Assembly: GCA_050174915.1 (NCBI GenBank)
Contig: JBFXJL010000001.1
Location: forward strand, 539,346 to 603,345
DNA from: Elusimicrobiales bacterium
Lineage (GTDB): Bacteria; Elusimicrobiota; Elusimicrobia; Elusimicrobiales; UBA9959
Length of the DNA: 64,000 nucleotides
Direction of reading: 5' to 3'
The notes under the pieces: generated by a model
The model's database searches: none
Seen by the model: only the letters and a program-made list of their open reading frames with translations
What the model was told of the DNA's origin: nothing
Program-made: the position numbers and the translations under genes
Part shown: positions 29,288 through 57,130 of the stretch, piece by piece
Position numbering within the stretch: the first letter of the stretch is position 1
Layout of the letters: every line of letters starts with the position of its first letter

Positions 29288-29419
29288 ATAGCCACCGCCT
29301 CTTATAATTTACTTTAAATTCTACATATTATGCCCCCGCCCCGCAAAGAGGCTAAACCCCGTTATTTTGTATCATACACTCAAAGCGCGGGGCGGCAAAC
29401 AGGGGGCGGTTTTACGCTT

Positions 29420-32779
<3,360 letters not shown>

Positions 32780-38001: not shown

Positions 38002-39156
38002 CTAACCCCCGATAATTTTTACCAAGTCGCGCAGCGCGGCAGGGGCCCACAACGACGAGAATGCTGCCCCCAGCGTGAGCGCTGAGAAAACGTAGAAATA
38101 TTTTACCGAGTACAACCCGCCGAGAAAGCCGCCGGCCGCCGGCAGGTCCAGGCCGAAGACGGTGTAGCGCAGCCCGCCTTTAGGGCAGGCGTCCAGGCAT
38201 TGCCCGCAGAGGTTACAGTAGGCCAGGATCTCGGCCTTGCCGCCGAGGGCGCAGCTGATGGCCGTCATCGGGCAGGCGGCCACACAGCTCCGGCAGCCGC
38301 TGCACTGGTCGGCCGCGGCCGTCAGGCGGAAAGGATTCAGTCTGCCCCAGAAAGCCTGCCAGGCGGCGAAAGGACAGAGAAAGGAACAGAAGAAGCGCTT
38401 GCGGGTCAGCAGCGGCGCTATTACCAGCGCGGCCAGGGCCGCCAGCATCAGCGCGTACTGGGCGGTCCGGTGCCACCCCTGCCCGTCGAGAAAGGAGCCC
38501 GTGAGCTTGAACGGGCAGAGCCACAGGCAATACACCGGCAGCGCGTAGCCAAGCGACAGCAGCAGCAGGAAGATCAGCAGCGCCGCCGGCAGGTCGCGCG
38601 CTTTCAGCGCCCAGCGGTCGATCTTAAGCAGCGGTTTTTTGGGCAGGGCGCTCAGCCCGTCGTCGATGCCGCCGTAGAAGCAGGCCCATGAGCACCAGGC
38701 CCGGCCGATGGCCAGCGTGACGAACAGCCAGAGCGCGCCCAGGCTCAGCGGCCCCCACAAGGCCCAGCCGCCGGCGGCGAGCGCGAGGTACTGCTGGCGC
38801 AGGTAATTCAGAAAATACGGGGCCATCGCTATATGGCAGAAAGGCGTGTCCGTAAAACATGACGGAGCCAGCGACTTGGAGACCAGGCCGAGTTTGAAAT
38901 GCAGCAGGAAAGCCAGTGCGGAGACCGAGAAAAACAGCCTGCGCCAGGAGGAGACGCGGCCGGTGTAGGCTATGGCGAAGGCCGTCCCCCCGGCGAACAG
39001 CGCCCAGGCCAGCGCGTAGAGCCTGCTGATCTCCCTGCCCGCTATCGCCGAGGAGAAGAACAGAACCGGCACGAAAACCAGAAGCGCAAAGACCGCGGCG
39101 GCGGGCGCCGTGTTCCCGTTTTCGGCCGCGGGCTTCATCGGCAAGGGAAGTTTCAC
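38002..39156 (-). CDS. NapH/MauN/NosH-type membrane polyferredoxin (2 CX3CP motifs plus 2 [4Fe-4S] ferredoxin motifs)
   Basis: Polytopic. CX3CP motifs: CLWLCPF and CSFLCPF. Ferredoxin motifs: CSGCRSCVAACP and CNLCGQCLDACP. The start is either GTG 39156 (GTGA overlap with the upstream stop) or ATG 39138. Confidence 0.75.
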   Translation of the reverse strand: MKLPLPMKPAAENGNTAPAAAVFALLVFVPVLFFSSAIAGREISRLYALAWALFAGGTAFAIAYTGRVSSWRRLFFSVSALAFLLHFKLGLVSKSLAPSCFTDTPFCHIAMAPYFLNYLRQQYLALAAGGWALWGPLSLGALWLFVTLAIGRAWCSWACFYGGIDDGLSALPKKPLLKIDRWALKARDLPAALLIFLLLLSLGYALPVYCLWLCPFKLTGSFLDGQGWHRTAQYALMLAALAALVIAPLLTRKRFFCSFLCPFAAWQAFWGRLNPFRLTAAADQCSGCRSCVAACPMTAISCALGGKAEILAYCNLCGQCLDACPKGGLRYTVFGLDLPAAGGFLGGLYSVKYFYVFSALTLGAAFSSLWAPAALRDLVKIIGG

Positions 39157-40619
39157 CGTTGTCTCCCCTCCTCGAACGAGTCTACCGTAAAGGAATACAA
39201 GTCGGTACCGGCCTGCCGCCAGCAGTCGCGCGGCAACCCCGCTTTCTGGGCGCAGAGCTCGCCCATAAAATCATCTTTGGCCGGGATCTGGTCCCAGACC
39301 TGAGGCAGGAAAAGGCCGCTGCGGCCGTCCTTGCGCAAAAAGACTCCGGAGCCGTGCTTTATGGCGTCAGGCTGCACCGGCTCGAGGGGCGACAGCACGG
39401 AGATCTCCAGGCGTACCGCGGCTAATTCGTCCTCGCGCAGCGGCTTGAAGCGGCCGTCCTCGAACGCGGCGCCGAGGGCGCCGTAGCGCACGGCGTCGGC
39501 CAGCGTAAGTGCGGGCTGGACAGTGCCCACGCAGCCGCGCAGCGCGCCGCTCCGCAGCAGGGTCACGAAAGCCGCCCCCGGCAGGTTCAGCCGGGGATCG
39601 GCGTGCAGGCCGGCCGGGCTTTCCCCCCCGGAGAAATGCCGCTCCAGCGCCAGGCGGGCCTCGCTCAGGAGGGCCGCCTTTTGCTCTTTTGAGAGAGCAA
39701 GACTTGCGGGCCGGCCGGTTTTCAGGAAAAGGCCGGAAAGATAACCGACCACGCGGTCCGGGGAGCCCGCCGGGTTCTGGTCGTAGGAATTGGAAAGCGC
39801 CAGCGACCGGAAAGACTTAGCCCCCAGCAGGCGCGCGGCCGTGAGACCGGCTTCTATGGCTGCCTCGCCGCAGGCGCAGGTGTCCAGCCCGGGTATCTTT
39901 TTGCGCGCTATGAACTGCGCCGCGTCGCGCAGCAGGGCCGGGTCCATGGCCTCCAGGGCCAGGCGCAGCGCCCCGTCGGAAGCGGCGGCGTCGGCCCTGG
40001 ACGGGTAATGGGAAAGGTCGGCCGAGATCACGAGCAGCGCCTTTTTGCCTTTCAGCGCGCCGGCCAGGGCTGCGCCTATCTCCGCCCGCTCGGCCGGGCC
40101 GGCGGCGTTAAGGGTGGCGGCCAGCAGCTTGAAAGGTTTCTTCAGCCGGCGCTGCAGGAAAGGCAGTTGCACCTCCACGGCATGCTCGGCCGCGTGGGCC
40201 GAAGGCTTGTCCTCGAAGAGAGGGCTGGCTTTTACCAGCGCGGCCGCCAGGGCGCGATCGGGCTCCACCCTGCCCAGGGGCGTGACATAGGCGTCGGAGG
40301 CCAGCAGGGCAGCGCCGCGCACCCCCTCGGTATGCCCGGTGGCCAGGATGACAACGGTGTCGTAGCGGTCGGCGGTATATTTATAGGCGAGACCCGCCAG
40401 GCGGCCGGAGTATTCGTATCCGGCATGCGGCGCCAGCACCGCCGCGATCTCCCCCTCCGGCCCTGGGATCTTCCCGGCGGACAGGTACCCGTCCACGGCC
40501 GCGGCGAGAGCCGCGGGGTCCGACGGGTAGAAGCGGCCCGCTACGGCCGCTTCGCGCGCCCCCGCGGCTGCGCAGGAGGAGAGGCACAGCGCGGCGGAGA
40601 GTAACAATTCCAGACGCAT
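39153..40619 (-). CDS. fusion of Memo-like (AmmeMemoRadiSam system protein B) and AMMECR1 (protein A) domains, with an N-terminal lipoprotein-like signal
   Basis: N-terminus MRLELLLSAALCLSSCAAAG (lipobox-like LSSC). Memo blocks: GRFYPSDP, LAPHAGYEYSG, ADLSHY. C-terminal AMMECR1 block: AFVTLLRSGALRGCVGTVQP...AFEDGRFKPL...LEISVLSPLEPV. Confidence 0.8.
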   Translation of the reverse strand: MRLELLLSAALCLSSCAAAGAREAAVAGRFYPSDPAALAAAVDGYLSAGKIPGPEGEIAAVLAPHAGYEYSGRLAGLAYKYTADRYDTVVILATGHTEGVRGAALLASDAYVTPLGRVEPDRALAAALVKASPLFEDKPSAHAAEHAVEVQLPFLQRRLKKPFKLLAATLNAAGPAERAEIGAALAGALKGKKALLVISADLSHYPSRADAAASDGALRLALEAMDPALLRDAAQFIARKKIPGLDTCACGEAAIEAGLTAARLLGAKSFRSLALSNSYDQNPAGSPDRVVGYLSGLFLKTGRPASLALSKEQKAALLSEARLALERHFSGGESPAGLHADPRLNLPGAAFVTLLRSGALRGCVGTVQPALTLADAVRYGALGAAFEDGRFKPLREDELAAVRLEISVLSPLEPVQPDAIKHGSGVFLRKDGRSGLFLPQVWDQIPAKDDFMGELCAQKAGLPRDCWRQAGTDLYSFTVDSFEEGRQR

Positions 40620-44689: not shown

Positions 44690-45727
44690 CTACCAGATGA
44701 ACTGCACTCCCAGGCGATGGGTGGCGCCGAGGCTGCCGTAGTCCACGTAAGAGTAGTCCACGCGGGCCCCGCGCACCAGACTGTTCCTGTCCGCCAGCCG
44801 GTCGAAGTTCATGCCGAAGCCGCCGGAGAGCTTGGAGCCGGCGTCCTTGTTGTTGCGGTAGCCGAGGCGCAGCTGGAACATCTTCATCACGTCCATCTCC
44901 AGGCCGGTTACTGAGATGTAGTCCTGGTCGGTATATTTGACCATGTCCGAGGCCACCGTGAAAATCATGATGTCGTTGATGGTGCGGAAATCCTTGGCCA
45001 CGCCGAAGCGCAGCGACGAGGGCAGGCCGGAGGAGGCCTCCGCGAATTTCTGCCCCCCGCCCAAATTGAGCGCGGACATCCCGAGCTGGAAATGCCGCGG
45101 CAGCACCAGCGTCACCCCGGCGTCGAAAGCGTAGGTGCCGGAGGTTTCCCCGGCGAGTTTTTCGTCGATCTTCTTTACGCTGGCGCCCGCGGCAAGGCGG
45201 TAGACCTTGGGGCGGTAGTCGGTTACCGGCTCTATCCGGCTCCAGGGCGGGTTGATCAGCATCGGGTCCAGGCGGCCGGCGTCCTTCCTGAAATGCGGCC
45301 AGCTCTGCGCCACGGAGAGCACCAGCAGCCGGTGGCCGGTGGAGGTCTTGCCTATGGGCATGTCGTTATCGTCGTAGGCGTCGATGTCGCCGCTGGACAG
45401 CGAGGAGAAAGCCGCGCCCACCGTGGCGAAAGGGAAGCGCCAGGCCACGGCCAGGTACTCCTGCTTAACTCCGATGAGGTACTGGTTATGCGCTCCCGAG
45501 AAAGCGGAGTAGCTCATCAGGCCCAGGCCGGCGGGGTTGTAAAGGATGGAGTCGGGGCCGACCATGGCCGTGTAAGCCTCGCCCATACCACTGGGGAGCG
45601 CGGCCACCGGAATCTTGAGAAAATTAGCGGCTGTGGTGCCCGCCCCCTCGGCGCCGGCGGGCGCGGCAAGGCGGACGGCCAACAGGGCCGCCGCCGCAAC
45701 GCTCTCTAGATACCGCCGCATTTTCAT
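44690..45727 (-). CDS. PorV/PorQ-family-like outer-membrane beta-barrel protein
   Basis: ORF 44690..45784. The start is moved to ATG 45727 (MKMRRYLESVAAAALLAVRLAAPAGA, a signal peptide). The N-terminal block TTAANFLKIPVAALPSGMGEAYTAMVGPDSILYNPAGLG resembles the PorV/UPF0164 signature. Alternating beta-strand pattern, and the protein ends ...RLGVQFIW. Confidence 0.55.
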   Translation of the reverse strand: MKMRRYLESVAAAALLAVRLAAPAGAEGAGTTAANFLKIPVAALPSGMGEAYTAMVGPDSILYNPAGLGLMSYSAFSGAHNQYLIGVKQEYLAVAWRFPFATVGAAFSSLSSGDIDAYDDNDMPIGKTSTGHRLLVLSVAQSWPHFRKDAGRLDPMLINPPWSRIEPVTDYRPKVYRLAAGASVKKIDEKLAGETSGTYAFDAGVTLVLPRHFQLGMSALNLGGGQKFAEASSGLPSSLRFGVAKDFRTINDIMIFTVASDMVKYTDQDYISVTGLEMDVMKMFQLRLGYRNNKDAGSKLSGGFGMNFDRLADRNSLVRGARVDYSYVDYGSLGATHRLGVQFIW

Positions 45728-45917
45728 ATGGCAAAATGGCAGACAGGCCCAAAAACGCCCGTTCGCCGACATTATAGTATACACTAATGATAAAGCATTT
45801 CAATGACAGATTTGTTACAGTCCGCGGCGCTTTCTCCGCCCCTTGCGGTTCTCCTTGTGCCCGCCGCCCGCACTATAATATAATCGGTTAATACGCATAT
45901 TAATGCGGGGGACCCTA

Positions 45918-47423
45918 ATGATAAAATATTTCCTGTTTGCCGCCTTGGCGGCCTCGCAATTTCTCCTGGCCGCGGCGCCGCTGGCGGCCCAGACCGCCAG
46001 CCGGTCGTCTATAGAGGCCAAGCTCGCGCTGGAGAACTCGCTTGAGAAGCGCGTGCGCATGGTGCTCTCGGAGGCGCTGGGCACGGAGGACATCATAGTG
46101 ATGATCTCCGCCGAACTGCAGGAGCCGGACAAGAAGGCCAGGGAGATCCTTCCCGGCATCCCGCGCCAGGAAAAGATGGGCGAGGCCTCGCTGTCAAGCA
46201 GCCTCACCATGGTCAAGAAGATCTCGGCCAGCCTGATCCTCGACAAGTCCGTTTCCGAGGAGGACGCGCAGCTGGCCCGCAAACTGGCCGGCGGCCTGCT
46301 GGGCCTGCCCTCCGACAGGCAGGACCTGATAACCCTCGAGCGCATGGATTTCCGCAAGGTCCGGCCGCTTACCTTCGCCGACCTGTTCCTCCCCCCCAAC
46401 CTCTGGAGCCTGACCTGGATAGTAGTGGTGGGCGCCCTGGCCTTCCTGACCGTTTTCAAATTCCTGGCGCCGCTCTCGCGCAGCGCCGGAGCCTTCGTAG
46501 AGGCCTTCAGCGCCCACGCCGCGGCGGCCGCCGCCGGCGGAGAGCGCGCCGAACGCGGCGAGCGCCGCGACGAACCGGAAGCCCGCGAGACGGCCAAGGC
46601 GGCGCAGGAGGCCCAGGCCGCCCAGCCCGCCGACGGCCGCAAACCCCCGTTCTGGTTCCTGACCGCCGGGCACCTCTCCAGCCTGGCCTTCATCATGAAG
46701 TCGCGCCCGACCGAGGACCTGACCATCGTGCTCAGCTACGCCCCCGGAGACGTGGCGTCCCGGCTGGCAGAGACCCTCTACCCGAAAAGCGCCGACGCCC
46801 TGGCCCAGCTGCCCAAGGTGACCCTGATGCCGGAGGCGCGCATCCGCTCGCTCGAGGCCGAGATACAGGCCGCGCTGGACTACGTGGTGGGCGGCGAGGA
46901 CAAGGCCGTCGGCATAATCAGCGGCCTCGACGAAGCCGTGCAGGAGAAAGCCCTGGCGGCCTTCGCCCGCCTCGACCCCGTGATGGGCAAGAAGCTCAAC
47001 GCCTCCGTAGTGCGCCTGGCCAACATCCAGGACCTGGAACCGGCCCACGCGCAGACGCTGGCCCGCAGACTGCCGGTGAGAGTGCTGGCGGCAGCACTCA
47101 AAGGCTCCCCCCACGCGCCCGCCTTCCTGGCCAAGCTGGCAGGCGGAATGCAGGAGCGTTTCAAACAGGAGCTGGAACTAACCCGCGACCTGCCCGCCGA
47201 AGCCTACAAGAGCGACAGGGCCAGGGTGGTAGAGACTCTGCGCCAGCTGATCAAAGAAGGCCTGGTGACGCTCAGGGGCCGCGGCGCTCCCGCCCCCAGG
47301 CCCGCGGCCGCCCCGGCGGCGGCCAGGCCCGCCGGCGCGACCCCCGCCCCCGGCGTAAGACCAGCGGCCGCTCCGCCCGCCGCCGCCCCCAAGCCCCCGC
47401 CGGCCGCGGCCGCCAAACCCTGA
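45918..47423 (+). CDS. membrane protein combining a FliF/SctJ-like periplasmic domain, one TM helix and FliG-like middle and C-terminal domains
   Basis: ORF 45903..47423. ATG 45918 is preferred, giving MIKYFLFAALAASQFLLAAAPLAAQ (signal/TM1). ORF aa 36-148 run LENSLEKRVRMVLSEALGTEDIIVMISAELQ...SASLILDKSVSEEDAQLARKLAGGLLGLPSDRQDLITLE, an alpha-beta-beta-alpha-beta ring-building-motif-like pattern. TM helix LWSLTWIVVVGALAFLTVFKFLAPL. After a charged linker, aa 249-457 are FliG-like: RPTEDLTIVLSYAPGDVASRLAETL..., VRVLAAALKGSP..., GMQERFKQELELTRDLPAEAYKSDRARVVETLRQLIKEGLVTL. The tail is Pro/Ala-rich. Confidence 0.65.
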   Translation: MIKYFLFAALAASQFLLAAAPLAAQTASRSSIEAKLALENSLEKRVRMVLSEALGTEDIIVMISAELQEPDKKAREILPGIPRQEKMGEASLSSSLTMVKKISASLILDKSVSEEDAQLARKLAGGLLGLPSDRQDLITLERMDFRKVRPLTFADLFLPPNLWSLTWIVVVGALAFLTVFKFLAPLSRSAGAFVEAFSAHAAAAAAGGERAERGERRDEPEARETAKAAQEAQAAQPADGRKPPFWFLTAGHLSSLAFIMKSRPTEDLTIVLSYAPGDVASRLAETLYPKSADALAQLPKVTLMPEARIRSLEAEIQAALDYVVGGEDKAVGIISGLDEAVQEKALAAFARLDPVMGKKLNASVVRLANIQDLEPAHAQTLARRLPVRVLAAALKGSPHAPAFLAKLAGGMQERFKQELELTRDLPAEAYKSDRARVVETLRQLIKEGLVTLRGRGAPAPRPAAAPAAARPAGATPAPGVRPAAAPPAAAPKPPPAAAAKP

Positions 47424-47441
47424 CTCCCGAGGTAAACTATT

Positions 47442-48215
47442 ATGGACCTGATGACATTCCTTGGAGGCCTGACCGGGCTGGGCGTCATAATCTTCGTGCT
47501 CTCCACCGGCGGCATGCTGAAATTCCTGCTCAACTGGGAAGCCATTATCCTGATCTTCGGCGGTACGGCCGGCTCGGTGATGATCGCCTACCCCTGGGCT
47601 TCGCTGAAGTGGCTTAAGTCCTCGGTGAAAATGGTGATCTTCCCCCCCAAGCGCCCGGCCATACACGAGCTCATCCGCGCCATCGTGCGCTACGCCGAGA
47701 TCGGCAAGAAGAACGGCATCGACGCCATCGCCGGCGAGCTGCGCACCTCGCCGCACCCGTTCCTGACCGACGCCTGCCAGATGATGCTCGACGGCGTGGA
47801 CATACACATCCTGCGCGAGCGCATGGAAAACGACATCAACACCACCCGCCTGCGCCACCAGCAGCAGACCAACATCTTCAACTCGGCCGGCACCTTCGCC
47901 CCGATCTTCGGCCTGCTCGGCACGCTCATCGGCGTCGTGCAGGTGCTCCGCAACATCCAGGACCCGTCCAAGATGGGTTCGTCGATGGCCATCGCCATGA
48001 CCGCGTCCTTCTACGGCATCTTCTCGGCCAACTTCCTGTTCCTGCCCATCGCCAGCAAGCTGGGCTACTATTCCGACGAGGACATCCTCAGCCGCGAGAT
48101 CATCGCCAAGGGCGTGCTCTCCATCTACGACGGGGACGTGCCCTGGCTGGTCTCCAAGAAACTGGAAGGCTACCTGTCCCTGGCGCTGAGACGCAAGGCC
48201 AAGACGGGCGCGTAA
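47442..48215 (+). CDS. motA: MotA/PomA-family proton-channel stator protein
   Basis: 257 aa, 4 TM segments. Conserved blocks include both functionally important prolines: GTFAPIFGLLGTLIGV and SANFLFLPIASKL. GAGG sits upstream of the ATG. Confidence 0.85.
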   Translation: MDLMTFLGGLTGLGVIIFVLSTGGMLKFLLNWEAIILIFGGTAGSVMIAYPWASLKWLKSSVKMVIFPPKRPAIHELIRAIVRYAEIGKKNGIDAIAGELRTSPHPFLTDACQMMLDGVDIHILRERMENDINTTRLRHQQQTNIFNSAGTFAPIFGLLGTLIGVVQVLRNIQDPSKMGSSMAIAMTASFYGIFSANFLFLPIASKLGYYSDEDILSREIIAKGVLSIYDGDVPWLVSKKLEGYLSLALRRKAKTGA

Positions 48216-48245: not shown

Positions 48246-48920
48246 ATGAAGTTCTTCATCTCCAGATACTCCAGTTACAGAGTGGGCGACAACCCGCTCT
48301 GGCTGGTCGTGCTGGCGGACATCATGACCAACCTCATGCTGTTCTTCCTGATCCTCTACGTCTTCACCACCCGCCCCGACCTGGCCTCCAACTCCGAGTT
48401 CCTGGAGGGCTTCGACAAGGATACCGCCCAGCAGCAGAAGGAAAAGAAGGCCGAGGACGTGGTAAAGAAATTCACCGAGGAGGACCTGGCGCGCAAGCTC
48501 GCCGAGGACCTGCTCAAGGCGGGCATGAAGGACCTGGCCGAAGTGCAGATCACCGCCAAACAGATCAAGATTAACATCGCCGCCCCGGTGCTCTTCCGCT
48601 CCGGCAAGGCGGAGCTGGGCGGCTCTTCGGCCGAGGTGCTGGGACCGGTGGCCGCGGTGCTAAACACGCTGCCCAACGACGTGATAGTGGAGGGCCACAC
48701 CGACGCCGTGCCCATCAAGTCCGGCGACTACGGCACCAACTGGGAACTCTCGGCGGCCCGCGCCAACGCCGTGGTGGACCTGCTGGCCGCCAGGTACTCG
48801 GTGCCGCAGGAGCGGATGATAGCGGCGGCCTACGGCGAGCACCGGCCGGCCGCCCCCAACGACACGGCCGAAGGCCGCGCCAGGAACCGCAGGATCGAGA
48901 TCATAGTCCCCCGGGAATGA
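48246..48920 (+). CDS. motB: MotB-family stator protein 1 (OmpA-like peptidoglycan-binding C-domain)
   Basis: N-terminal TM helix with the channel Asp: PLWLVVLADIMTNLMLFFLILYVF. OmpA-like domain: VEGHTDAVP...NWELSAARANAV...NRRIEIIV. Confidence 0.85.
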   Translation: MKFFISRYSSYRVGDNPLWLVVLADIMTNLMLFFLILYVFTTRPDLASNSEFLEGFDKDTAQQQKEKKAEDVVKKFTEEDLARKLAEDLLKAGMKDLAEVQITAKQIKINIAAPVLFRSGKAELGGSSAEVLGPVAAVLNTLPNDVIVEGHTDAVPIKSGDYGTNWELSAARANAVVDLLAARYSVPQERMIAAAYGEHRPAAPNDTAEGRARNRRIEIIVPRE

Positions 48921-49567
48921 GCGAAAAGAAAGACATCTCCCAGCTCTGGATGGTCCCTTACGCGGACCTGATGACCTGCATGGTCATCCTGTTCCTTGCC
49001 CTCTACGGCTTCGCCTACAACATGAAAGGCTCCGAATACGAGAAGGCGCTGGCCCAGATGCAGAAGGAGCTGGGCATCAAGCACGCCGACCAGAAGCTCA
49101 GGGAGCTCGAGGCCGCCAGCAAGGTGGAAGAGGACCTGAAGGAACAGATCAAGGAAGGCAGCCTGGGCCTGGAGTTCAGCACGTCGCGCATCAAGCTCAC
49201 CTTCGCCTCGCCGGTGCTCTTCGACTCCGGCTCGGCCAGGCTCAAGCCGTCCGCGCTGGCGGTGCTGGATCCGGTGGCCGACAGCCTGCTGAAGATGGAA
49301 AACAGCGTGGTGGTGGAGGGCCATACGGATTCGGCCCGCATGCTCGGCAGGAAATTCGCCTCCAACCGGGAACTATCCATCATGCGCGCTTTCTCGGTGA
49401 TCGACTACCTGGCCTCCAGGGGCGTGAGCCCCGGGCGGCTCACGGCCTTCGGCTACGGGGAGTTCCGCCCGGCCGCCCCGAACGACACCGACGAGAACCG
49501 CGCCCGGAACCGGCGCATAGAGATGATCATCATGCGCCAGGAGCAGCCACAGGGAACCAAATCATGA
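48917..49567 (+). CDS. motB: MotB-family stator protein 2 (paralog)
   Basis: TM helix with Asp: QLWMVPYADLMTCMVILFLALYGF. OmpA-like domain: VEGHTDSARM...NRELSIMRAFSV...NRRIEMII. ATGA overlap with MotB-1. Confidence 0.85.
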   Translation: MSEKKDISQLWMVPYADLMTCMVILFLALYGFAYNMKGSEYEKALAQMQKELGIKHADQKLRELEAASKVEEDLKEQIKEGSLGLEFSTSRIKLTFASPVLFDSGSARLKPSALAVLDPVADSLLKMENSVVVEGHTDSARMLGRKFASNRELSIMRAFSVIDYLASRGVSPGRLTAFGYGEFRPAAPNDTDENRARNRRIEMIIMRQEQPQGTKS

Positions 49568-50490
49568 AAACACTTATCCTCGCCGCGGCGCTCGCCGCCT
49601 TCTCCGGGCCCGCCGCCCTGGCGCAGCCCGCCCCCGAAAATTTCGACCTCAAGGCCTATTACGACAAGGCCTTCTCCTATTACGTGGCCGGGGAATATTC
49701 CAAAGCCATCGAGCAGTGGAACATGGTGCTGCGCTCCGACCCCAAGCAGACCACCGCCAAGAACATGATAGAGGAAGCCCGCCGGAAAATGGCCGGTTCC
49801 GCTTCCGACCTGAAAGGCGCCTTCGCGCGCCTGGTACAGCGCGCCCAGTACGCCGACGCGCTGCAGAAGCTCGAAGAGCTGCTGGCCACCGACCCCACGA
49901 ACCCCTACTATGTGTCGGCCCAGGGCCGGTTGAGAACCATCTCGGCCATCGCCCCCCGCCGCCCTTCCGCCTCGCGCGCCTGGGGCGCCGCCGCGGACGG
50001 CATCGGCGCCTGGCTGGGAGAAAAAGCGGACCTGCCCTTCGCCTACGACGCGCTGCGTTACGCCGCCGAACTGGCCCCCGCCGAGCGGGCCTTTCCCCGC
50101 CTGGTGGCCGCTCTCGAGGCCGAGGCGCCCCAGCTGCGGCTCAACGACACCAAGCCGGAGAACGTAGCCGTGCTCGAGCACAAGAAGGAAAAGGCGCTGC
50201 ACCACATCTACGATTCCAAATTCTACCTGGCCGTCAAGGAGCTCGAAGGCGTGCTGCGCCTGGAGCCCGACGACGTCACCGCGCTCAAACGTGCGGGATC
50301 GGCCTACCTGCAGCTCAAGGATTACCGCCAGGCCCGGAGTTCCTGGCAGCGCGCGCTGGAGCTCTCCCCCGGCGACGAGCAGCTGCCGGAATACCTGAAG
50401 GCGCTCGACGAGGCCATGCCCGAGGCCGCCCGGCCCGGGCCGAGCAAAACCCGGAAAGGCGCCCGCAAACAGGCCGGCGCCCGCTACTGA
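49564..50490 (+). CDS. periplasmic TPR-repeat protein
   Basis: Signal peptide MKTLILAAALAAFSGPAALAQ. TPR-like units (YYDKAFSYYVAGEYSKAIEQWNMVLRSDP; GSAYLQLKDYRQARSSWQRALELSP). ATGA overlap with MotB-2. Confidence 0.75.
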   Translation: MKTLILAAALAAFSGPAALAQPAPENFDLKAYYDKAFSYYVAGEYSKAIEQWNMVLRSDPKQTTAKNMIEEARRKMAGSASDLKGAFARLVQRAQYADALQKLEELLATDPTNPYYVSAQGRLRTISAIAPRRPSASRAWGAAADGIGAWLGEKADLPFAYDALRYAAELAPAERAFPRLVAALEAEAPQLRLNDTKPENVAVLEHKKEKALHHIYDSKFYLAVKELEGVLRLEPDDVTALKRAGSAYLQLKDYRQARSSWQRALELSPGDEQLPEYLKALDEAMPEAARPGPSKTRKGARKQAGARY

Positions 50491-50512: not shown

Positions 50513-50538
50513 AAAAAGGGCCGGCAGCGGCCCTTTTT
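50513..50538. terminator. bidirectional intrinsic terminator between the motor operon and the convergent beta-barrel gene
   Basis: AAAAA GGGCCG GCAG CGGCCC TTTTT. Confidence 0.7.
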
Positions 50539-50560: not shown

Positions 50561-52474
50561 TCAGAAAGAGTAATTGTACCTGGTCATCACGTTCAGCACG
50601 GTCTCGTCGGCGGCCGGGTTGAGGTTGTCCGCGCGCGAGACCCCTCCCACGCCGAAGGTAAACCGGGAGTTCTGGCTCTTCAGCCAGACCGTTTCCACGT
50701 TGAGCGTGACGGAGCTGTTGTCGGCCGGCGAGAGGGGCGAGTCGTTCTCGGCCGAGGCCAGCGTGGCCCAGCACTGCACCGCCATGCCGCGCCGCGGCAT
50801 GGCGTAGGAGAGGCTGGCGGTGAGGCTGTTGTTCTTGCCGGTGGAGGAATCAACCTTGTCCTTCGTCTCGGAACTGACCAGGCCCGTCGACAGGGACAGG
50901 CGCCGGTTGAGCTTGAAAGAGCCGTTGAGAGAGAGCAGCGAGCTGTCCAGGTCGTGCGACAGGCCCAGGTTATCCTTGAAGGAAGACTGCTGCACGCCGG
51001 CCGACAGCGTGTGGCGGCCCAGCGGCTGCGTTACCGAGAGGTTGAGCGTGGTGGTCTGGTTGTCCTGTACGCCCTCGGTCTGGGCCTTGGCGGTATTGGT
51101 CATGATCGAGGTGTTCACCACCGTCTTGCCCAGGATCCTCAGCGTGTTGCCCAGCGTGGTCTGGGCCTGGTCCGTGGTGGTCTTGGCCGGGTCGGCGTCG
51201 AGGTTGTCGGTGTAGGCGTTGTAGGCCACCGTGAAGGTGGTCCAGTCCGCCGGAAAAAGCCCCAGCTCGGCGTCCAGCACCTCCCGGTCCGCGATCACCG
51301 ACGGACTACCGAAGGAATAGAATTTGGGATCTATGCGCGACAGCGCGCCGCGCGCGGTAAACAGGTCGGCGCGGTATTTAAGTTCCTGCTTCCAGGCCGA
51401 GCCGCCCACCGCCGCCCCGGAGGCTTCCAGGTCCGCTTTGTAGGCGCTCATCTGGAAATCGCTGTTGAGGGAGAACGCCTTCAGGAACTTCCACTCGGCG
51501 TTGAGACCGTAGACCACGGTCTGCTGGGGCTTGATGGTCAGCGCCGTCGTGGTGATGTTGATGGAATGCATGTCGTCACGGCTCATCACCGCGTCCGCCG
51601 AGACCTTGAGGTTGGGCCGGAACTGCCAGCCGGCCTTCAGGCCGCTGGTATAGCGCGCGAAGCGGCCGCCGCTGTTGGGGCCAGGCTCCTCGGGCGCCAC
51701 GATGCGCCCCACCAGGGCCAATAACGAATACTTTCCCCGCGCCCGCTCGAACGAGACGCCGCGCATGCCCTGCCCGTCCATCGACAGCGGCGTCAGGGTG
51801 GGCGAGATGTCGCCTACGCTCAGGGTACCCCAGGGGGCGTAGTAGTTGAGCAGCACTATCGTGGGCGTGATCGGGCGGTGGTAGGTGTGCACCACGTAGG
51901 TATTGAACAGGAAGGAGGACTGGCGGATCTTGCCCACCAGATTGGCCGACGTGATCCCCTGGTGGTGGTCCCAGCCGTCGCGGCTGTTGTTCTTGTAGGT
52001 GAAAGAGACGTCGCCGCCGATCTTGAAATCTTCGGGCACAGTGTAGCGCAGCTCCTTTTCTATGACCTGGAAGCCCTTGAAATCGGTCTCGAGGATGCGG
52101 CGGCCGTCCTTGATGAGGAAGACGCGGTAAAGCAGGCGGCGGCCGGCCAGGTTGTCGGGCACGCGGAAAGCCAGCTGCACGCCCTGCGCCGCGCCCGGGG
52201 CCACGTCCTCGGCCGGCGACACGCTGGCCGTCTGGGTGAGAAAGCGGCGGCCCTCACCCTCTATGGCGTATACCTCGCCTATCCAGTAGTAACTGCCGCG
52301 CTCCCACACGGAGGCGCCGCTGTTGACGGCCAGCGTCTGAAGCGTCACTTCCTCGCCGGCCATCACCGGGTCGGGCGCGGCCACCGTGAACTGCAGGCTC
52401 GCGGCGTCCTGCGCCAGCAGCGGCCGGGCCTGACAGACGAGGGAGAAAAATATTATTGCGGCAAGTTTACGCAT
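50561..52474 (-). CDS. outer-membrane beta-barrel protein with an N-terminal Ig-like domain, unknown family
   Basis: Signal peptide MRKLAAIIFFSLVCQARPLLAQ. The alternating-residue beta-strand pattern persists throughout. C-terminal OMP signature ...VMTRYNYSF (terminal Phe). Confidence 0.7.
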   Translation of the reverse strand: MRKLAAIIFFSLVCQARPLLAQDAASLQFTVAAPDPVMAGEEVTLQTLAVNSGASVWERGSYYWIGEVYAIEGEGRRFLTQTASVSPAEDVAPGAAQGVQLAFRVPDNLAGRRLLYRVFLIKDGRRILETDFKGFQVIEKELRYTVPEDFKIGGDVSFTYKNNSRDGWDHHQGITSANLVGKIRQSSFLFNTYVVHTYHRPITPTIVLLNYYAPWGTLSVGDISPTLTPLSMDGQGMRGVSFERARGKYSLLALVGRIVAPEEPGPNSGGRFARYTSGLKAGWQFRPNLKVSADAVMSRDDMHSINITTTALTIKPQQTVVYGLNAEWKFLKAFSLNSDFQMSAYKADLEASGAAVGGSAWKQELKYRADLFTARGALSRIDPKFYSFGSPSVIADREVLDAELGLFPADWTTFTVAYNAYTDNLDADPAKTTTDQAQTTLGNTLRILGKTVVNTSIMTNTAKAQTEGVQDNQTTTLNLSVTQPLGRHTLSAGVQQSSFKDNLGLSHDLDSSLLSLNGSFKLNRRLSLSTGLVSSETKDKVDSSTGKNNSLTASLSYAMPRRGMAVQCWATLASAENDSPLSPADNSSVTLNVETVWLKSQNSRFTFGVGGVSRADNLNPAADETVLNVMTRYNYSF

Positions 52475-52519: not shown

Positions 52520-55500
52520 CTACCTCACCACCGCGAACTTCTTTACCACCTTCTCCGACCGGCCGGTGGTAAGGCCCTTGATCCGCAGCACGTAGAGATA
52601 CACGCCCGAGGCCGCGCCGTCGCGCACCAAGTCCCAGGTCAGGCGCCTGCCTCCCAGCTGCGCCAGGTCCGGCGCGTGGGCGTCGAGCGTTCTGAGCAGC
52701 CGCCCGGAGACGTCGAAGATCTGCGCCTCGGCCTCGTAAGGCTCCGGCGGCTGCGGAAAATGGAAATGCACTTCAGTGCTGGCCGGGTTGGGATAGGCGA
52801 AGACGCCGGCCTTGTTGAGCAGGTCCCATTTGGGAGCGAAGACCAGGCGCTCGCCGGGGCCCAGCTTCACCGTTTCCATGCGGCTGAACTCCGAACCGTT
52901 GAAGACACGCAGCGAGTAGGTGCCGGGCAGCAGGTTCGGGATTTCAAAGGCGCCGGCGGCGTCGGTATAGGCCGCGCCGATGCGGCGGCCGCGGCTGTAG
53001 ACTTCCACGAAGGGTTCGGCGCCGGAAGAGACGCGGGCCTCGCGCGTGGTATAGCGCGCGGTAGCGGGCCGCGCGGCGGAGGCGGCCGGCAGGTAGTTCG
53101 ACGGGATCACGCCGAGAATGCTGGCCAGCTGGTAGGAAACGCTAAGGCTGAAATTCACGTTGGACGAACCGTTAGGCACATTATCCTTGGAAACCGAGCT
53201 CTCGATGTCCTGCGCGGTCCAGACCGCCCGCAGCGTGAGGTAGAGCGAGTCCACGCCGGGGATGGAGTAGTCGCCGAAAGCGTCCGTGTAATCGCTGCCC
53301 TCCAGCGCGCCCGCCGGCGAGCGGGCCTCCACCAGCACGCCGGTGAGCGGCTGGGCGGCGGCGTCGGTGACGCGGCCGGTGAGCGCGCCGCTGCCCGGGG
53401 CCCCGCTGAGCGCCGAGGCCTCGCTGGAGGCCGCGGACCAGTTCTGCGCGTCGTCGGCGGTCCAGAGCGTGAAATAATAGACGGCGGCCGGGTCCAGGCC
53501 GGTCAGCGTCCAGTAGCGCGTGGTACCGGCGCTGACCGAGGCGGTGGCGATGGCCACCTGGGCCGTATCCGTGGAGACGGGGGCGCCCGCGTAGGTGGAG
53601 TAGGCTATCTTGTACGAGCCCTCCGGCAGGTAGCCGCCGGCCGCGTTGTCGCCGGCGGAAGGCCAAGAGAGGTTGACGGCGCCGCTGAAAGCCCCGGGAA
53701 CGGCGGCCAGGCCGGCCGTGGGCGGCGGCGGCGTGGCGTCGGAGTAGGTGAAGGTGGAACCGGACGCGTAGAAAGCGCCGGTGTTTACCGGCACGGCCAG
53801 GTCGGAGGCGCGCACGGTGACGTAATAGGAAGCGCCGTGAACCAGCGAATCGCGCAGGTAAGGCTGGAAGGTCCAGGTCCAGTACGGCGTGGTGCCGGCC
53901 TGCAGCGGCTCGGGCGCGGCGGCCCACTCGGAAACGGAGTTCTTCCACCATTTCCCGTCGGAGAGGCGCTTCAGCGCGACGTCCACCGAGGCTATGCCGG
54001 AATGCGGGTCGGCGGCGGTACCGCTGACCGAGGCCACGGAGGGCGAGGTCGAGCCGTCGGCGGGGTACAGCACCGCCGCGTCCGGGGCGCCCGCGTCGAA
54101 AGTGAAGGTATGAGTGGCCAGCAACTGCGAGTAGTCCCCGGCCGAGTCGGAGGACCGGGCCACCACCTGGTACTGGCGGCCGCCGATCAGCGGCAGGTTC
54201 TGAAAAATAATGGTGTAGCTGCTGGGGAAATCCTGGGCATCCTGCCAGGCCTGGGAGCCGGAGAGGAAATCGCCGCCGTTGTAATAGAGCAGGCTGGCCA
54301 GGTCGCGGATGGACACTTCGGTGCCCTTTACCTGGTGGGCGTTGGTCTCGGCCGTGCCGCCCGCCACGCGCGTGAACGTAGACAGGAACAGGGCGGTGGG
54401 CGTGGAAATGGTCACTACGGGGCCGCTGACGTTCTTGGCTATGCCGAAGGCGTCGGTGAGCGTGCGGGTGGAGCCGGCCACGTCGACCGCCCGGAAACTG
54501 AAGTAGTTGGAGGTAGCGTTGGCCAGCGCGTTAAAGCTGTAAGTCAGAGTGGGGCGATACCAGGTGGCGCCGGCGGTGAGCCCGGAGATATCCGTCCACG
54601 GGATAACCGCGCCGTCGGCGAAGTTCTTGGAGGCGCTGACGCTGAACTGCACCCGGGCCAGGCCGGAGAGCGGATCCCCGAAATCCAGGCCGGCCACGTC
54701 CCCGGGGTAATCGGTCAGCCAGGCCTCCGGGGCCGCGTAGCCCGATTCCACCGAAGGGGGCGTGGTGTCCTTGCGCACCATGAACGCCTCCAGGACCTCT
54801 CCGTAGTTGCCGGAGCGGTCATAGGCCCGGATGGAGACGTAGTTGGAAGCCCCGTCGAGCATAATGTCCCAGGCCTGCTGAGTAAGCGGCCAGTCAGCCG
54901 AATAGGATTCCTGGTCTATGCCCGTAAGAACGGGGGTCCAGCCGCCGACGAAACTGGCCGGGTCGGCTTCCCTGGTGGAGACGCGCACTTCTATCCGGTC
55001 CAGGCCGGCCGCGCCCACGTCGGTGAAATTCACGTCGCAGAGGAAGGTGTTGGTGGACTGCCAGCCGGGGATATTGCCCTGCTGGTCGTCGATAGTGGGG
55101 CTGCTGATGTCCAGCGCGGGATCGAAGCCGGTGCGCACCGCGGGCAGCTCTGCGTAGCGCGATAATTTTTCGGGTTCCTCCAGGCGGACCCGGGCGTAAT
55201 AGGTGGTGCTCTGCTGCAGCCCGGTCAGTACCGCCGAAAGAACGCCGGCCGCGCTGAGTGAGAAAGAGTGGGAATAGTCGGAATGAGAAGAGTAGACCAG
55301 GCTGTAATCGGAGCCGGGCGGGTTGCCGTTGGCGGTCCAGTTGACGGTGGCCGAAGACACCCAGACATTAGTCCAGGCGGCGGTGCCGGGAACTGCGGCG
55401 TAGGTAAACGTGGAGCCGGCCTGCGAGAACTGGGTGGCGACGCCGGCCCAGTTGCGGGCCCGGGCGCGGTAGTAGTACTGCGTGAGCGGCTGCAGGCCGG

Positions 55501-57130
55501 AGAAGGAGAAGGACGGGCTGGCGGACCACCCGGAAGTTTCGGCGCCGGTGAAGCCGCTGTTAAGCGCCACCTCTGCCTGGTACTCGGCGCCCAGGGCCGC
55601 GGCGGAATAGACCGAATCCGACGGGGTGGACCCGGGAGAGCCGCCAAAGAGGTAGAGCCGCGGGCCGGCCAGCGCCACGGCCGGGAACTGGCGCTCCGCC
55701 GGCATGGGGGGCCCGGCTTCCCAAGGCGCGATTCCGGCTACGGGCACGCTGCTGTGGAACACGTGCCGCTGCGGGCCGTAACCGTTGTTGCCGCCGAATA
55801 CATACAGGCGGTTGCCGGCGGCGGCCGCCGCATGGCCGTAACGGGGAGACGGCAGCGGGGCGTAAGCCGTCCAGTCCTCTGTATCCGGGTCGTAGGTCCA
55901 GGCCTCGGCCCTTACTGCGGCACCGTCGCTGCCGCCGGCCAGCAGCAGGCGGCCTTCCAGGGCAGTCAGCGAGTGGCCGTAACGGGGCGCGGGCAGGCCT
56001 TCCCCCGCCCCCTGCCAGGCCGACAGGGCGCCGTCGGGACCGATCTCCGCGTAGGCCAGGCCGCTCAGCACGCCTACCCCGGACTTATAACCGCCGCTGA
56101 CATAAATGCGGTTCTCCGCCAGGGTCGCGGCATGTAAATAAACCGGCTCCCCCAGCCCGGCCTCCGGCAGCCAGACGCCCAGGACGCCAGAAGAAGAAAT
56201 GTCAGCCGACCAGACCTCGTTGCGGGCGGCGCCGGACTCCGAGCCGCCCAGGATATACAGCCGTCCGCGCGCCGCCACGGCCTGGTGGCCGTAAAGGCCG
56301 GCAGGCATATACCCGGCCGTGCTCCAGCCTCCCAGCGAACCGTCGCCGTTAATTTCGGCCCGGAAAACAGCGCTGGAAAAATAGATACCGTCGAAACCGC
56401 CGCTCACGTAGACGTGCGAACCGTAAACCACCGAGGCCGAGCCGGAGCGGGGAGCCGGCAGGGCGCCCGGGAGACCCGCGGTTTCCCACCCTCCGAGCAG
56501 CGGCGGCGGGTTACCCGAGTAGGCGAAAGCCAGCCCCAGCGTGCCGTGGCCGGCGTCGGCCAGCGTGAACTCGCCCGTGGAAGGAACCACGGCCATGGTC
56601 ACGGCCGTGGAGGAGGCGGGAGCGGAGTAATCCCCCTCCATGTAATTGGCGATCAGGAAATTGTAGTAGCTGGTATTGGGCGCCAGGCCTTCCACCGGGT
56701 AACCGTGTTCGTCGGTGGAATAAGTGACCATATACGGGTCGGCCTCGGCCCAGGTGGAAACGAAGAAGTCGTAGGTGGTCCCGGGCGGGTTCGCTGGGTA
56801 CGGCCCGCCCTGTTCCGTCCAGACCAGCGTGTAGCTGCTGCCCCCCTGCGCCGAGTAGTCCAGCACCGCCGCCGAGGAAACCAGCCGCGAATAGAAGCCG
56901 GACTCCAGCGCTATATCGTTGCTCATATCCTGAAATATCTGAGTGCCGTGGGCCGCGCCGGCCAGCCCCCCCTGCAGCACCGTGCCGTCGGCGTGCGACT
57001 GTCCCGCGCTGGCAGACGAGTAGTCCGCCGCGTCACCGAGCACGGTAATGTCTCCCGCTGTTTTTTGGGCCGCCGCCTGTACGGTAAACAGGCATGCCAA
57101 CATGGCGGCCGCGCTGATGAGCGCTTTCAT
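52520..57130 (-). CDS. giant exported protein: Kelch-type beta-propeller, multiple FN3/Ig-like domains, carboxypeptidase-regulatory-like domains and a T9SS-type (FlgD-Ig-like) C-terminal domain
   Basis: 1536 aa. Signal peptide MKALISAAAMLACLFTVQAAAQ. Kelch units: GHQAVAARGRLYILGG, RYGHSLTALEGRLLLAGG, RYGHAAAAAGNRLYVFGG. FN3-like units: LQPLTQYYYRARARN, LQQSTTYYARV. C-terminus: VFAYPNPASTEVHFHF...IFDVSGRLLRTL...SGVYLYVLRIKG...KKFAVVR. Confidence 0.75.
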   Translation of the reverse strand: MKALISAAAMLACLFTVQAAAQKTAGDITVLGDAADYSSASAGQSHADGTVLQGGLAGAAHGTQIFQDMSNDIALESGFYSRLVSSAAVLDYSAQGGSSYTLVWTEQGGPYPANPPGTTYDFFVSTWAEADPYMVTYSTDEHGYPVEGLAPNTSYYNFLIANYMEGDYSAPASSTAVTMAVVPSTGEFTLADAGHGTLGLAFAYSGNPPPLLGGWETAGLPGALPAPRSGSASVVYGSHVYVSGGFDGIYFSSAVFRAEINGDGSLGGWSTAGYMPAGLYGHQAVAARGRLYILGGSESGAARNEVWSADISSSGVLGVWLPEAGLGEPVYLHAATLAENRIYVSGGYKSGVGVLSGLAYAEIGPDGALSAWQGAGEGLPAPRYGHSLTALEGRLLLAGGSDGAAVRAEAWTYDPDTEDWTAYAPLPSPRYGHAAAAAGNRLYVFGGNNGYGPQRHVFHSSVPVAGIAPWEAGPPMPAERQFPAVALAGPRLYLFGGSPGSTPSDSVYSAAALGAEYQAEVALNSGFTGAETSGWSASPSFSFSGLQPLTQYYYRARARNWAGVATQFSQAGSTFTYAAVPGTAAWTNVWVSSATVNWTANGNPPGSDYSLVYSSHSDYSHSFSLSAAGVLSAVLTGLQQSTTYYARVRLEEPEKLSRYAELPAVRTGFDPALDISSPTIDDQQGNIPGWQSTNTFLCDVNFTDVGAAGLDRIEVRVSTREADPASFVGGWTPVLTGIDQESYSADWPLTQQAWDIMLDGASNYVSIRAYDRSGNYGEVLEAFMVRKDTTPPSVESGYAAPEAWLTDYPGDVAGLDFGDPLSGLARVQFSVSASKNFADGAVIPWTDISGLTAGATWYRPTLTYSFNALANATSNYFSFRAVDVAGSTRTLTDAFGIAKNVSGPVVTISTPTALFLSTFTRVAGGTAETNAHQVKGTEVSIRDLASLLYYNGGDFLSGSQAWQDAQDFPSSYTIIFQNLPLIGGRQYQVVARSSDSAGDYSQLLATHTFTFDAGAPDAAVLYPADGSTSPSVASVSGTAADPHSGIASVDVALKRLSDGKWWKNSVSEWAAAPEPLQAGTTPYWTWTFQPYLRDSLVHGASYYVTVRASDLAVPVNTGAFYASGSTFTYSDATPPPPTAGLAAVPGAFSGAVNLSWPSAGDNAAGGYLPEGSYKIAYSTYAGAPVSTDTAQVAIATASVSAGTTRYWTLTGLDPAAVYYFTLWTADDAQNWSAASSEASALSGAPGSGALTGRVTDAAAQPLTGVLVEARSPAGALEGSDYTDAFGDYSIPGVDSLYLTLRAVWTAQDIESSVSKDNVPNGSSNVNFSLSVSYQLASILGVIPSNYLPAASAARPATARYTTREARVSSGAEPFVEVYSRGRRIGAAYTDAAGAFEIPNLLPGTYSLRVFNGSEFSRMETVKLGPGERLVFAPKWDLLNKAGVFAYPNPASTEVHFHFPQPPEPYEAEAQIFDVSGRLLRTLDAHAPDLAQLGGRRLTWDLVRDGAASGVYLYVLRIKGLTTGRSEKVVKKFAVVR

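Follow-up and report, generated by a model that had tools for sequence, protein, structure and literature searches.

The window analysed here is a stretch of 64,000 nucleotides of an Elusimicrobiales genome (contig JBFXJL010000001.1, positions 539,346 to 603,345 of the forward strand), and the gene in question is an open reading frame (ORF) of 506 aa at 45903..47423 (+), whose product unites parts of the two flagellar rotor proteins FliF and FliG. It comprises, in this order, an N-terminal signal or anchor, a periplasmic domain resembling the third ring-building motif (RBM3) of FliF, a transmembrane (TM) helix, a charged linker, the FliG middle and C-terminal domains (FliG_M and FliG_C) and a Pro/Ala-rich tail; in short, the protein amounts to FliF(RBM3+TM2) joined to FliG(M+C). 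The gene heads an operon that also encodes one MotA, two MotB paralogues and a secreted tetratricopeptide repeat (TPR) protein, and this set probably specifies an autonomous, non-switching rotor-stator module, that is, a single-chain rotor in the inner membrane turned by MotA/MotB1/MotB2, with no filament. An earlier note on this DNA had proposed that a single polypeptide joins a FliF-like ring motif to FliG-like torque domains across one TM helix, a proposal now largely supported by Pfam, phmmer, Foldseek and a profile search.

Residue numbers are given throughout in the ORF numbering that starts at 45903, and the interval 46008-47273 singled out in the earlier note corresponds to residues 36-457, with all of the peptides quoted there present. 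The true start is likely to be the ATG at 45918, which has the sequence GGGGGA 6 nt upstream and coincides with the MIK or MIR that begins the homologues; 5 then has to be subtracted from the residue numbers of the earlier note. The architecture was modelled with AlphaFold2 (AF2) over the whole fusion, with 31 homologues as input, at a mean predicted local distance difference test score (pLDDT) of 76.9.

The C-terminal half, which the earlier note had aligned to FliG by eye, is folded by AF2 into an all-helical domain (aa 255-452) with a pLDDT of about 90. It can be divided into a FliG middle (ARM_M) domain with helix MC (46647..46883 (+), aa 249-327), opened by a conserved PFWF motif, and a FliG C-terminal domain (46884..47273 (+), aa 328-457), which includes a conserved Gly-Gly hinge (G330-G331) and the torque helix (47142-47186 (+), aa 414-428). 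The likeness to FliG goes far beyond what chance would give. The Pfam family FliG_C (PF01706) matches aa 356-457 with an E-value of 1.2e-9 (38.8 bits, for a cut-off of 23.3), phmmer aligns aa 249-461 to the Thermotoga maritima FliG-MC structures 3ajc (E 2e-7) and 1lkv (E 1e-6), hhalign matches residues 192-325 of Escherichia coli FliG (E 7e-6), and a Foldseek search with the full model returns FliG at all of ranks 1-13 (E 4e-8 to 2e-5). The same domains are recognized across the family, FliG_C in 88 and FliG_M in 86 of 92 representatives. Because Pfam, phmmer, Foldseek and hhalign all give FliG, a generic ARM or MgtE-N fold for aa 249-457 can be rejected. The fusion is nevertheless, on its profile scores, not a FliG orthologue: the whole protein reaches 22.4 bits with the fliG model TIGR00207, whose cut-off is 226.7, and Pfam finds no FliG_N in the fusion, the corresponding region being the disordered linker. 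The FliM-binding EHPQR motif, to which the earlier note had matched one peptide, does not hold up either, as E125-H126-P127-Q128 align to R268-P269-T270-E271 and R160 to Q302, at positions that vary across the family.

The periplasmic domain (45996..46349 (+), aa 32-149) was modelled with an alpha-beta-beta-alpha-beta topology, in which alpha1 spans aa 33-59, beta1 64-72, beta2 104-114, alpha2 119-133 and beta3 143-148. Two separate ring-motif blocks had been proposed in this region; the corresponding peptides are indeed present (LENSLEKRVRMVLSEALGTEDIIVMISAELQ at aa 43-73 and ISASLILDK...DLITLE at aa 107-146), but together they make up a single ring-building motif, one half each, with an insert of 31 residues between them. 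When aa 30-166 were modelled separately, the best 16 PDB matches found by Foldseek were all FliF RBM3 or S-ring chains from Salmonella and Vibrio (E 2e-4 to 4e-3, probability 0.99-1.0, TM-score about 0.5), ranking before any SctJ/PrgK chain, and with the full model the FliF MS-ring RBM3 chains come straight after the FliG matches. Less conclusive was the profile of this domain compared with PDB sequences, which gave non-significant matches only (FliF chain 9yh6_Oj at E 0.86, with a suggestive alignment), and hhalign against E. coli FliF, which was not significant alone (E 0.034, probability 1.5%) and still aligned the domain correctly to the start of RBM3 (FliF 238-267).

What settles the assignment to FliF RBM3 is an exhaustive search of the domain profile against 1.84 billion representative proteins, since it found true FliF. 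At a threshold of E<=1e-3, 223 matches were obtained, mostly proteins of 450-520 aa that carry the domain at their N-terminus, and the lower-scoring ones include FliF proteins of 420-590 aa (E 7e-9 to 5e-6) with Pfam YscJ_FliF and YscJ_FliF_C domains, named as such by their sources and originating from Carboxydothermus, Desulfotomaculum, Bacillota, Armatimonadota and Eremiobacterota. The match is colinear and falls into two pieces, alpha1-beta1 aligning to FliF residues ~230-290 and beta2-alpha2-beta3 to residues ~350-410, just before FliF TM2. Conversely, when the FliF sequences of Carboxydothermus and Desulfotomaculum were used as tblastn queries, this domain was the only part of the related loci to be matched (E-values down to 1.3e-6), and Pfam YscJ_FliF_C (PF08345) is detected at E<1e-3 in 60 of the 92 family representatives. 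The fold and profile matches thus identify the predicted periplasmic domain as a homologue of FliF RBM3 (S-ring), bearing out the suggestion of a ring-building fold. PF01514, which covers FliF RBM1/RBM2 and the SctJ-homology region, has no match in the fusion or in 92 relatives, and the whole periplasmic part of the fusion amounts to only ~135 residues. The same profile also matches (E 1e-6) a metagenomic protein of 628 aa (P0226), in which a domain of the FliF RBM3 type (YscJ_FliF_C, 3e-10) comes after a histidine kinase (HisKA and HATPase_c), an unusual occurrence of RBM3 outside a FliF/FliG context.

The insert between beta1 and beta2 (46119..46211 (+), aa 73-103) sits, in the two-segment alignment, at the position of the FliF beta-collar, with 31 residues against ~60-110 in FliF. 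It bears an LPG(I/V)P motif, of which P84 and G85 are the sole invariant columns among 92 divergent members of the family. By homology with FliF, which assembles into a ring of ~33-34 subunits, the domain may likewise form a ring.

Kyte-Doolittle analysis reveals two hydrophobic segments. The first (45918..45989 (+), aa 6-29, peak at aa 13-20) ends in ...PLAAQ, the A-Q after the hydrophobic run being conserved among homologues, and may serve as a signal peptide that is cleaved off or stay in place as an anchor like FliF TM1. The second (peak at aa 175-183) corresponds to the single TM helix (46392..46472 (+), ~aa 164-190), lies within an AF2 helix spanning aa 164-211 and contains the invariant residues W172, F187 and P190, in agreement with the helix first placed at aa 167-190. 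Beyond it comes the charged linker (46515..46646 (+), aa 205-248), predicted to be cytoplasmic, which is present as proposed for aa 210-248 and is disordered in the model (pLDDT below 50 for aa 212-244). This linker stands in place of the FliF C-terminal tail and FliG_N, the pieces that normally hold FliF to FliG. With an N-terminal signal or anchor, a periplasmic ring-building motif, one TM helix and a MotA partner surface that is itself cytoplasmic, the FliG part should lie in the cytoplasm. The protein ends in a Pro/Ala-rich low-complexity tail (47274..47420 (+), aa 458-506, pLDDT below 50), which varies in length among homologues and is the least constrained segment of the fusion, with a ratio of non-synonymous to synonymous substitution rates (dN/dS) of 0.29-0.30. 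In two family members of ~600 aa (P0073 and P0082), an IPT/TIG-like domain, on the predicted cytoplasmic side, follows the Pro-rich tail, and one of them is named 'IPT/TIG domain-containing protein' by NCBI.

Directly downstream lie the putative stator genes. MotA (47442..48215 (+), 257 aa, Pfam MotA_ExbB 6e-24) has the length of PomA, scores best with the flagellar MotA/PomA models of NCBIfam (E 1e-54, though short of every equivalog cut-off, at 185 vs 340), and matches the solved flagellar MotA 9lu9 (E 2.5e-53) and PomA (E 4.5e-39) over its full length; the equivalents of the TM3/TM4 prolines P173 and P222 are conserved in 44-45 of 45 sequences. Both B subunits, MotB1 (48246..48920 (+)) and MotB2 (48917..49567 (+), its start overlapping the MotB1 stop), carry the Pfam domains MotB_plug and OmpA as well as the TM Asp, the equivalent of Asp32 being found in 39 of 43 MotB1 and 39 of 41 MotB2 orthologues. 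Flagellar stators, termed 'FIT' in PMC12505986, are characterized by an expanded torque domain in the A subunit and by a B subunit with a TM Asp, a plug and an OmpA domain. Because MotA matches MotA/PomA along its full length and both MotB proteins have the plug, the TM Asp and the OmpA domain, the predicted stator is of the flagellar kind and not a generic 5:2 motor. The two MotB proteins, being 42% identical and falling into separate orthologous groups, are suggested to form a heteromeric B pair. As regards Zorya (ZorAB) or another defence system, PADLOC gives no ZorA match for MotA or the fusion, and only a generic similarity between ZorB and the MotB proteins, so that this candidate was rejected.

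How would such a stator engage the fusion? In the flagellar motor, the canonical contacts pair MotA R90 with FliG D288/D289, and MotA E98 with FliG R281 (PMC12505986). The earlier note had recognized a charged helix at the torque-helix position without being able to align these charges one-to-one. In E. coli numbering, they can now be placed as K264 at K400, R281 at G415, D288 at Q422, D289 at E423 and R297 at P431, so that the charges at K264 and D289 are kept, the latter as Glu, and those at D288, R281 and R297 are lost; the R297 equivalent is P, T, S, A or G across the family and never basic. Among the 46 paired systems from which both the fusion and MotA were recovered, the MotA R90 equivalent is K or R in 45, and Glu occupies the FliG D289 position without exception. 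By contrast, the MotA E98 equivalent is non-acidic in 45 of the 46 and the FliG R281 equivalent is Gly in every one, with conserved, family-specific acidic residues lying 3 positions before and 2 after the E98 position in MotA. The aligned R90/D289 pair is thus kept on both partners and the E98/R281 pair is lost on both together. Because one pair is kept and the other lost, on both partners, this pattern fits the co-evolution of a real interface, and it amounts to a natural experiment that may show which electrostatic contacts the motor can do without.

The association between the fusion and its stator genes is stable across the lineage. When one genome of each GTDB species was scanned, 56 loci were obtained, and every one that is sufficiently long shows the order fusion-MotA-MotB1-MotB2-TPR; those that are taxonomically named are all from Elusimicrobia, and HGW-Elusimicrobia-3 shares 98% identity with the window. 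Even among distant members (31-35% identity), with different flanks, the order fusion-MotA-MotB-MotB is kept, with or without the TPR gene, motA-motB-motB invariably following the fusion. In total the fusion family comprises 223 clusters at 50% identity, and each member that carries a name belongs to Elusimicrobiota. Ten distant members were looked up, and the two with names are both Elusimicrobiota; a second, word-indexed homologue search, with a broad alignment, recovered essentially the same Elusimicrobia set and did not widen the taxonomy. All five operon genes are under purifying selection (dN/dS 0.05-0.12 for the five; 0.11-0.12 for the fusion compared with loci L005 and L006).

In public annotation the homologues go by the names 'hypothetical protein', 'FliG C-terminal domain-containing protein' or 'FliG', some of the last as 'flagellar motor switch protein FliG', and the fusion is under-annotated in HGW-Elusimicrobia-3 (L005, protein P0254), for which only a 242-aa fragment of the gene has been deposited. 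Three antisense ORFs of 226-306 aa (45815-46726 (-), 46194-47114 (-) and 47178-47858 (-)) overlap the fusion gene and motA; these are high-GC artefacts and not genes, because their translations are rich in Arg, Gly and Ala and the sense genes are under purifying selection.

Other flagellar genes are lacking in this context. In 916 kb of sequence, consisting of the window and related loci, the fusion is the only homologue of FliE, FliF, FliG or FliH, and the other proteins scanned in the window belong to no flagellar family. Neither the window nor these 916 kb yielded any gene for an export apparatus, rod, hook, filament or switch. According to a preprint on the phylum (10.1101/2022.07.08.499144), few Elusimicrobiota genomes have full flagellar gene sets, and most free-living members are without flagellar structural genes, yet hold motAB, flbD and fliG homologues, the role of which was described as 'unclear'. 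The 916 kb and the preprint together suggest that the source genome has no flagellum.

Taken together, these observations can be assembled into a mechanism. Through its RBM3-like domain and the stacking of FliG ARM_M and ARM_C, the fusion would oligomerise into a ring in the inner membrane, its FliG_MC domains forming a torque ring on the cytoplasmic side. MotA and both MotB proteins would provide peptidoglycan-anchored stators, probably with the composition MotA5:MotB1:MotB2, and ion flow through them would push the torque helix of FliG_C and turn the ring. The output may be a coupling to the outer envelope, e.g., surface-protein movement or secretion. The motor is proposed to be non-switching and to lack a filament because FliG_N, the FliM motif, FliF RBM1/RBM2 (which house the export gate) and nearby rod, hook and export genes are all missing; without a FliM site, no switching under the control of CheY would be expected.

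Several points weigh against a rotor of this kind. The torque helix is without equivalents of R281 and R297, a disordered linker of 45 residues is an odd element for transmitting torque, and the collar insert is poorly modelled, with a low pLDDT (in a monomer model), at ~31 residues for ~110 in the FliF collar. Furthermore, Pfam YscJ_FliF_C remains below threshold for the fusion of the window itself (E 0.065), and the outer-membrane barrel and surface-protein genes that adjoin the operon, described below, are absent beside the most distant family members.

The length and disorder of the linker, together with the very short collar insert, are also what lends some substance to the main rival explanation, in which the fusion is a membrane-tethered adaptor and no ring rotates. 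FliG_MC would then dock onto, or activate (e.g., unplug), MotA/MotB1/MotB2, and the MotB periplasmic domains, together with the TPR protein and the barrel, would relay force to the outer membrane much as in Tol/Ton or AglRQS, with the RBM-like domain acting as a small module for oligomerisation or for contact on the peptidoglycan side. The combination of a single A subunit with two distinct B subunits does recall the AglR/AglQ/AglS gliding motor (5:2 motors, PMC12204202), and the TPR protein and the barrel are syntenic. However, FliF RBM3 builds a 33/34-mer S-ring in every solved structure that was matched, the chain-forming architecture of FliG ARM_M, Gly-Gly hinge and ARM_C is fully retained, and the known Tol/Ton/Agl transducers contact their motor inside the membrane and not via a FliG torque helix. 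We regard an adaptor as unlikely.

A rotating module of its own also has to be distinguished from an accessory or paralogous rotor part that serves a genuine flagellum, the remaining genes of which would be encoded at other sites in the genome. The few Elusimicrobiota genomes that hold complete flagellar sets (10.1101/2022.07.08.499144) and the annotation of some homologues as 'flagellar motor switch protein FliG' speak in its favour. It is nonetheless quite improbable, given that the fusion has no FliG_N, the domain by which FliG is attached to FliF, and is itself anchored in the membrane, that EHPQR is not conserved and TIGR00207 scores 22 bits against 226.7, that no flagellar gene occurs in the 916 kb, and that flagellar structural genes are missing from most free-living members with such homologues (10.1101/2022.07.08.499144). 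Still less probable is a Chlamydia-like FliF-FliG fusion that serves a type III secretion apparatus and not a stator; the fusion of the non-flagellated Chlamydiaceae has been proposed to interact with injectisome parts (PMC4768692), but it consists of an RBM2-type domain and FliG_M only, whereas the present one has RBM3, FliG_M and FliG_C, is invariably followed by motA-motB-motB, and has no type III secretion family in the window around it. That the locus is a decaying, functionless remnant of a lost flagellar cluster, as might be imagined in a phylum that has mostly lost flagella (10.1101/2022.07.08.499144), is scarcely credible, being contradicted by selection and synteny: dozens of species have retained intact ORFs, the five genes evolve at a dN/dS of 0.05-0.12, the family comprises 223 clusters at 50% identity, and the gene order is strictly conserved.

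If the fusion does form a rotor, to what would its rotation be coupled? The last gene of the operon encodes the secreted TPR protein (49564..50490 (+), Pfam TPR families, N-terminal MKTLILAAALAAFSGPAALAQ), whose start overlaps the MotB2 stop and whose gene is syntenic in nearly all loci; compared with PDB sequences, it matches generic and designed TPRs only, with no functional lead. The operon genes share one strand and are separated by short gaps or have overlapping stop and start codons. A perfect GC-rich hairpin with A5/T5 flanks, found by a consensus scan at 50513..50538 between the TPR gene and a convergent gene, looks like a bidirectional intrinsic terminator closing both the operon and this convergent gene. 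At the other end, a sigma-70 promoter scan found no + strand site upstream of the operon, where a TATAAT at ~45874 was seen by eye and is unscored.

The convergent gene (50561..52474 (-)) encodes a secreted protein of 637 aa that is probably an outer-membrane beta-barrel, ending in ...YNYSF, with a weak match to Pfam BBP2_2 (E 0.006) and no match among PDB sequences; it is syntenic in 30 loci, including L053 and L056-L058, and this synteny is the sole basis on which it may be linked to the motor. Next to it (52520..57130 (-)) lies a gene for a protein of 1536 aa with Kelch beta-propeller, fn3 and CarboxypepD_reg domains (Pfam) and a type A C-terminal sorting domain of the type IX secretion system (T9SS; TIGR04183, 24.2 bits vs a cut-off of 23). 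The barrel and the large sorting-domain protein adjoin the operon even at 31-34% identity. Upstream and divergent (44690..45784 (-)) is a gene for an outer-membrane protein of the PorV/PorQ family (NF033709, 99.3 bits vs a cut-off of 90), which, like the upstream Dxs and IspA genes, is conserved only among closer relatives. The TPR protein, the barrel and the PorV/PorQ and T9SS neighbours hint at a function in the envelope or at the surface, e.g., surface-protein movement or secretion. The proposal that a rotary motor without a flagellum is coupled via the TPR protein and the barrel to the moving or secreting of T9SS-type surface proteins, and would thus represent a new gliding or secretion engine, is a tentative one, which we hold to be rather doubtful; the output is weakly supported, as the barrel and sorting-domain neighbours are absent beside the most distant members.

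The flanking of the operon by a PorV/PorQ protein and a T9SS sorting-domain protein in itself hints at T9SS-like cargo handling in Elusimicrobia; the window shows no motor of the PorL/PorM type. Beyond the large sorting-domain protein lies an ORF of 2252 aa (57205-63963 (-)) with no significant Pfam or NCBIfam family, whose counterpart in locus L002 is a syntenic giant ORF of 2791 aa. Elsewhere in the window, a 727-aa secretion ATPase of the PilB/GspE type (16254-18437 (-), T2SSE 2e-133) carries a C-terminal Response_reg domain and adjoins a histidine kinase gene (15113-16246), and two large hybrid sensor kinases are encoded at 20983-24294 (-) and 29330-32779 (+), with the architectures PocR-PAS-HK-REC and CHASE3-PAS-HK-REC-REC-Hpt. 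A fusion of Memo and AMMECR1 (39153-40619 (-)) is also syntenic in L002, and its counterpart in locus L001 adjoins a radical-SAM gene in a cluster of the AmmeMemoRadiSam type; the position of this neighbour corresponds, in the window, to an ORF of 384 aa (38002-39156 (-)).

The flagellar motor is usually held to be inseparable from the type III export core, the rod and the switch, and the fusion locus suggests otherwise: in a phylum whose lineages are mostly reported to be without flagella, the torque pair, i.e., the FliF-RBM3/FliG ring and the MotAB stator, seems to have been kept as a five-gene module under strong purifying selection. If the proposed rotor is real, it would either descend by reduction from the torque-generating core of the flagellum or be a cousin of that core that has survived. 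Modular scenarios for the origin or reduction of the flagellum find a natural test case in this locus. Structural and single-molecule studies may have no simpler rotor-stator pair at their disposal, with one rotor protein and no switch, and the locus points to an uncharacterised ion-driven role in Elusimicrobiota, be it in motility, secretion or the envelope.

The earlier note knew of no characterised natural FliF-FliG fusion of this compact form. Natural fusions as such are not unprecedented, because one has been described in the Chlamydiaceae (PMC4768692, Bergeron 2016), and it is the present architecture that appears to be without precedent: our literature search found engineered fusions, the Chlamydia case and one preprint only, with no description of this fusion architecture or operon. 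The parts are known flagellar modules, and their combination and existence outside a flagellum appear undescribed. The Chlamydiaceae protein, of ~330 aa, likewise comes from a lineage without flagella and links a curtailed FliF with a cytoplasmic domain resembling FliG. Its composition is the reverse, however: it has an RBM2-type domain and FliG_M, with no RBM3/SpoIIIAG-like domain, no torque domain and no link to motAB, whereas the Elusimicrobia fusion has RBM3 only, FliG_M and FliG_C, and a dedicated stator.

When FliF and FliG of Salmonella or Vibrio are fused by engineering, the products are reported to form rings (PMC11481574, PMC10941966), and those of Salmonella still support flagellar rotation (cited in PMC4768692). 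In these cases full-length proteins are joined within a complete flagellum, while the Elusimicrobia fusion is natural, truncated on both sides and located outside any flagellar cluster.

Among ion-driven motors that operate outside the flagellum, as the Elusimicrobia operon would, AglRQS of Myxococcus and the other 5:2 motors (TolQR, ExbBD, GldLM and ZorAB) offer a parallel; AglR/AglQ/AglS, in particular, shares the arrangement of one A and two different B genes, as well as a possible output in the envelope or at the surface. The operon differs from Agl, Tol and Ton in its A and B subunits of the flagellar kind and in having a FliG domain as partner, in place of a TolA, TonB or GltG-type transducer. 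SctJ and SpoIIIAG, for their part, have the same TM-anchored alpha-beta-beta-alpha-beta fold as the fusion, and in SpoIIIAG the ring-building motif is split by an insert between beta1 and beta2 (PMC4768692). Unlike them, the N-terminal domain of the fusion has its sequence-profile matches in FliF, and SctJ/PrgK rank below FliF RBM3.

The fusion can finally be set beside the flagellar pair FliF-FliG, bound 1:1. Order and topology agree, from a periplasmic RBM3 through a TM helix to FliG_M and FliG_C, with a Gly-Gly hinge and a charged torque helix, and both go with MotA/MotB of the flagellar type, the genes of which adjoin the fusion. The fusion departs from this pair in being one polypeptide, in having neither RBM1/RBM2 nor EHPQR nor equivalents of R281 and R297, in its shrunken collar, in the linker that replaces the FliF tail and FliG_N, and in a neighbourhood free of export, rod, hook and switch genes.

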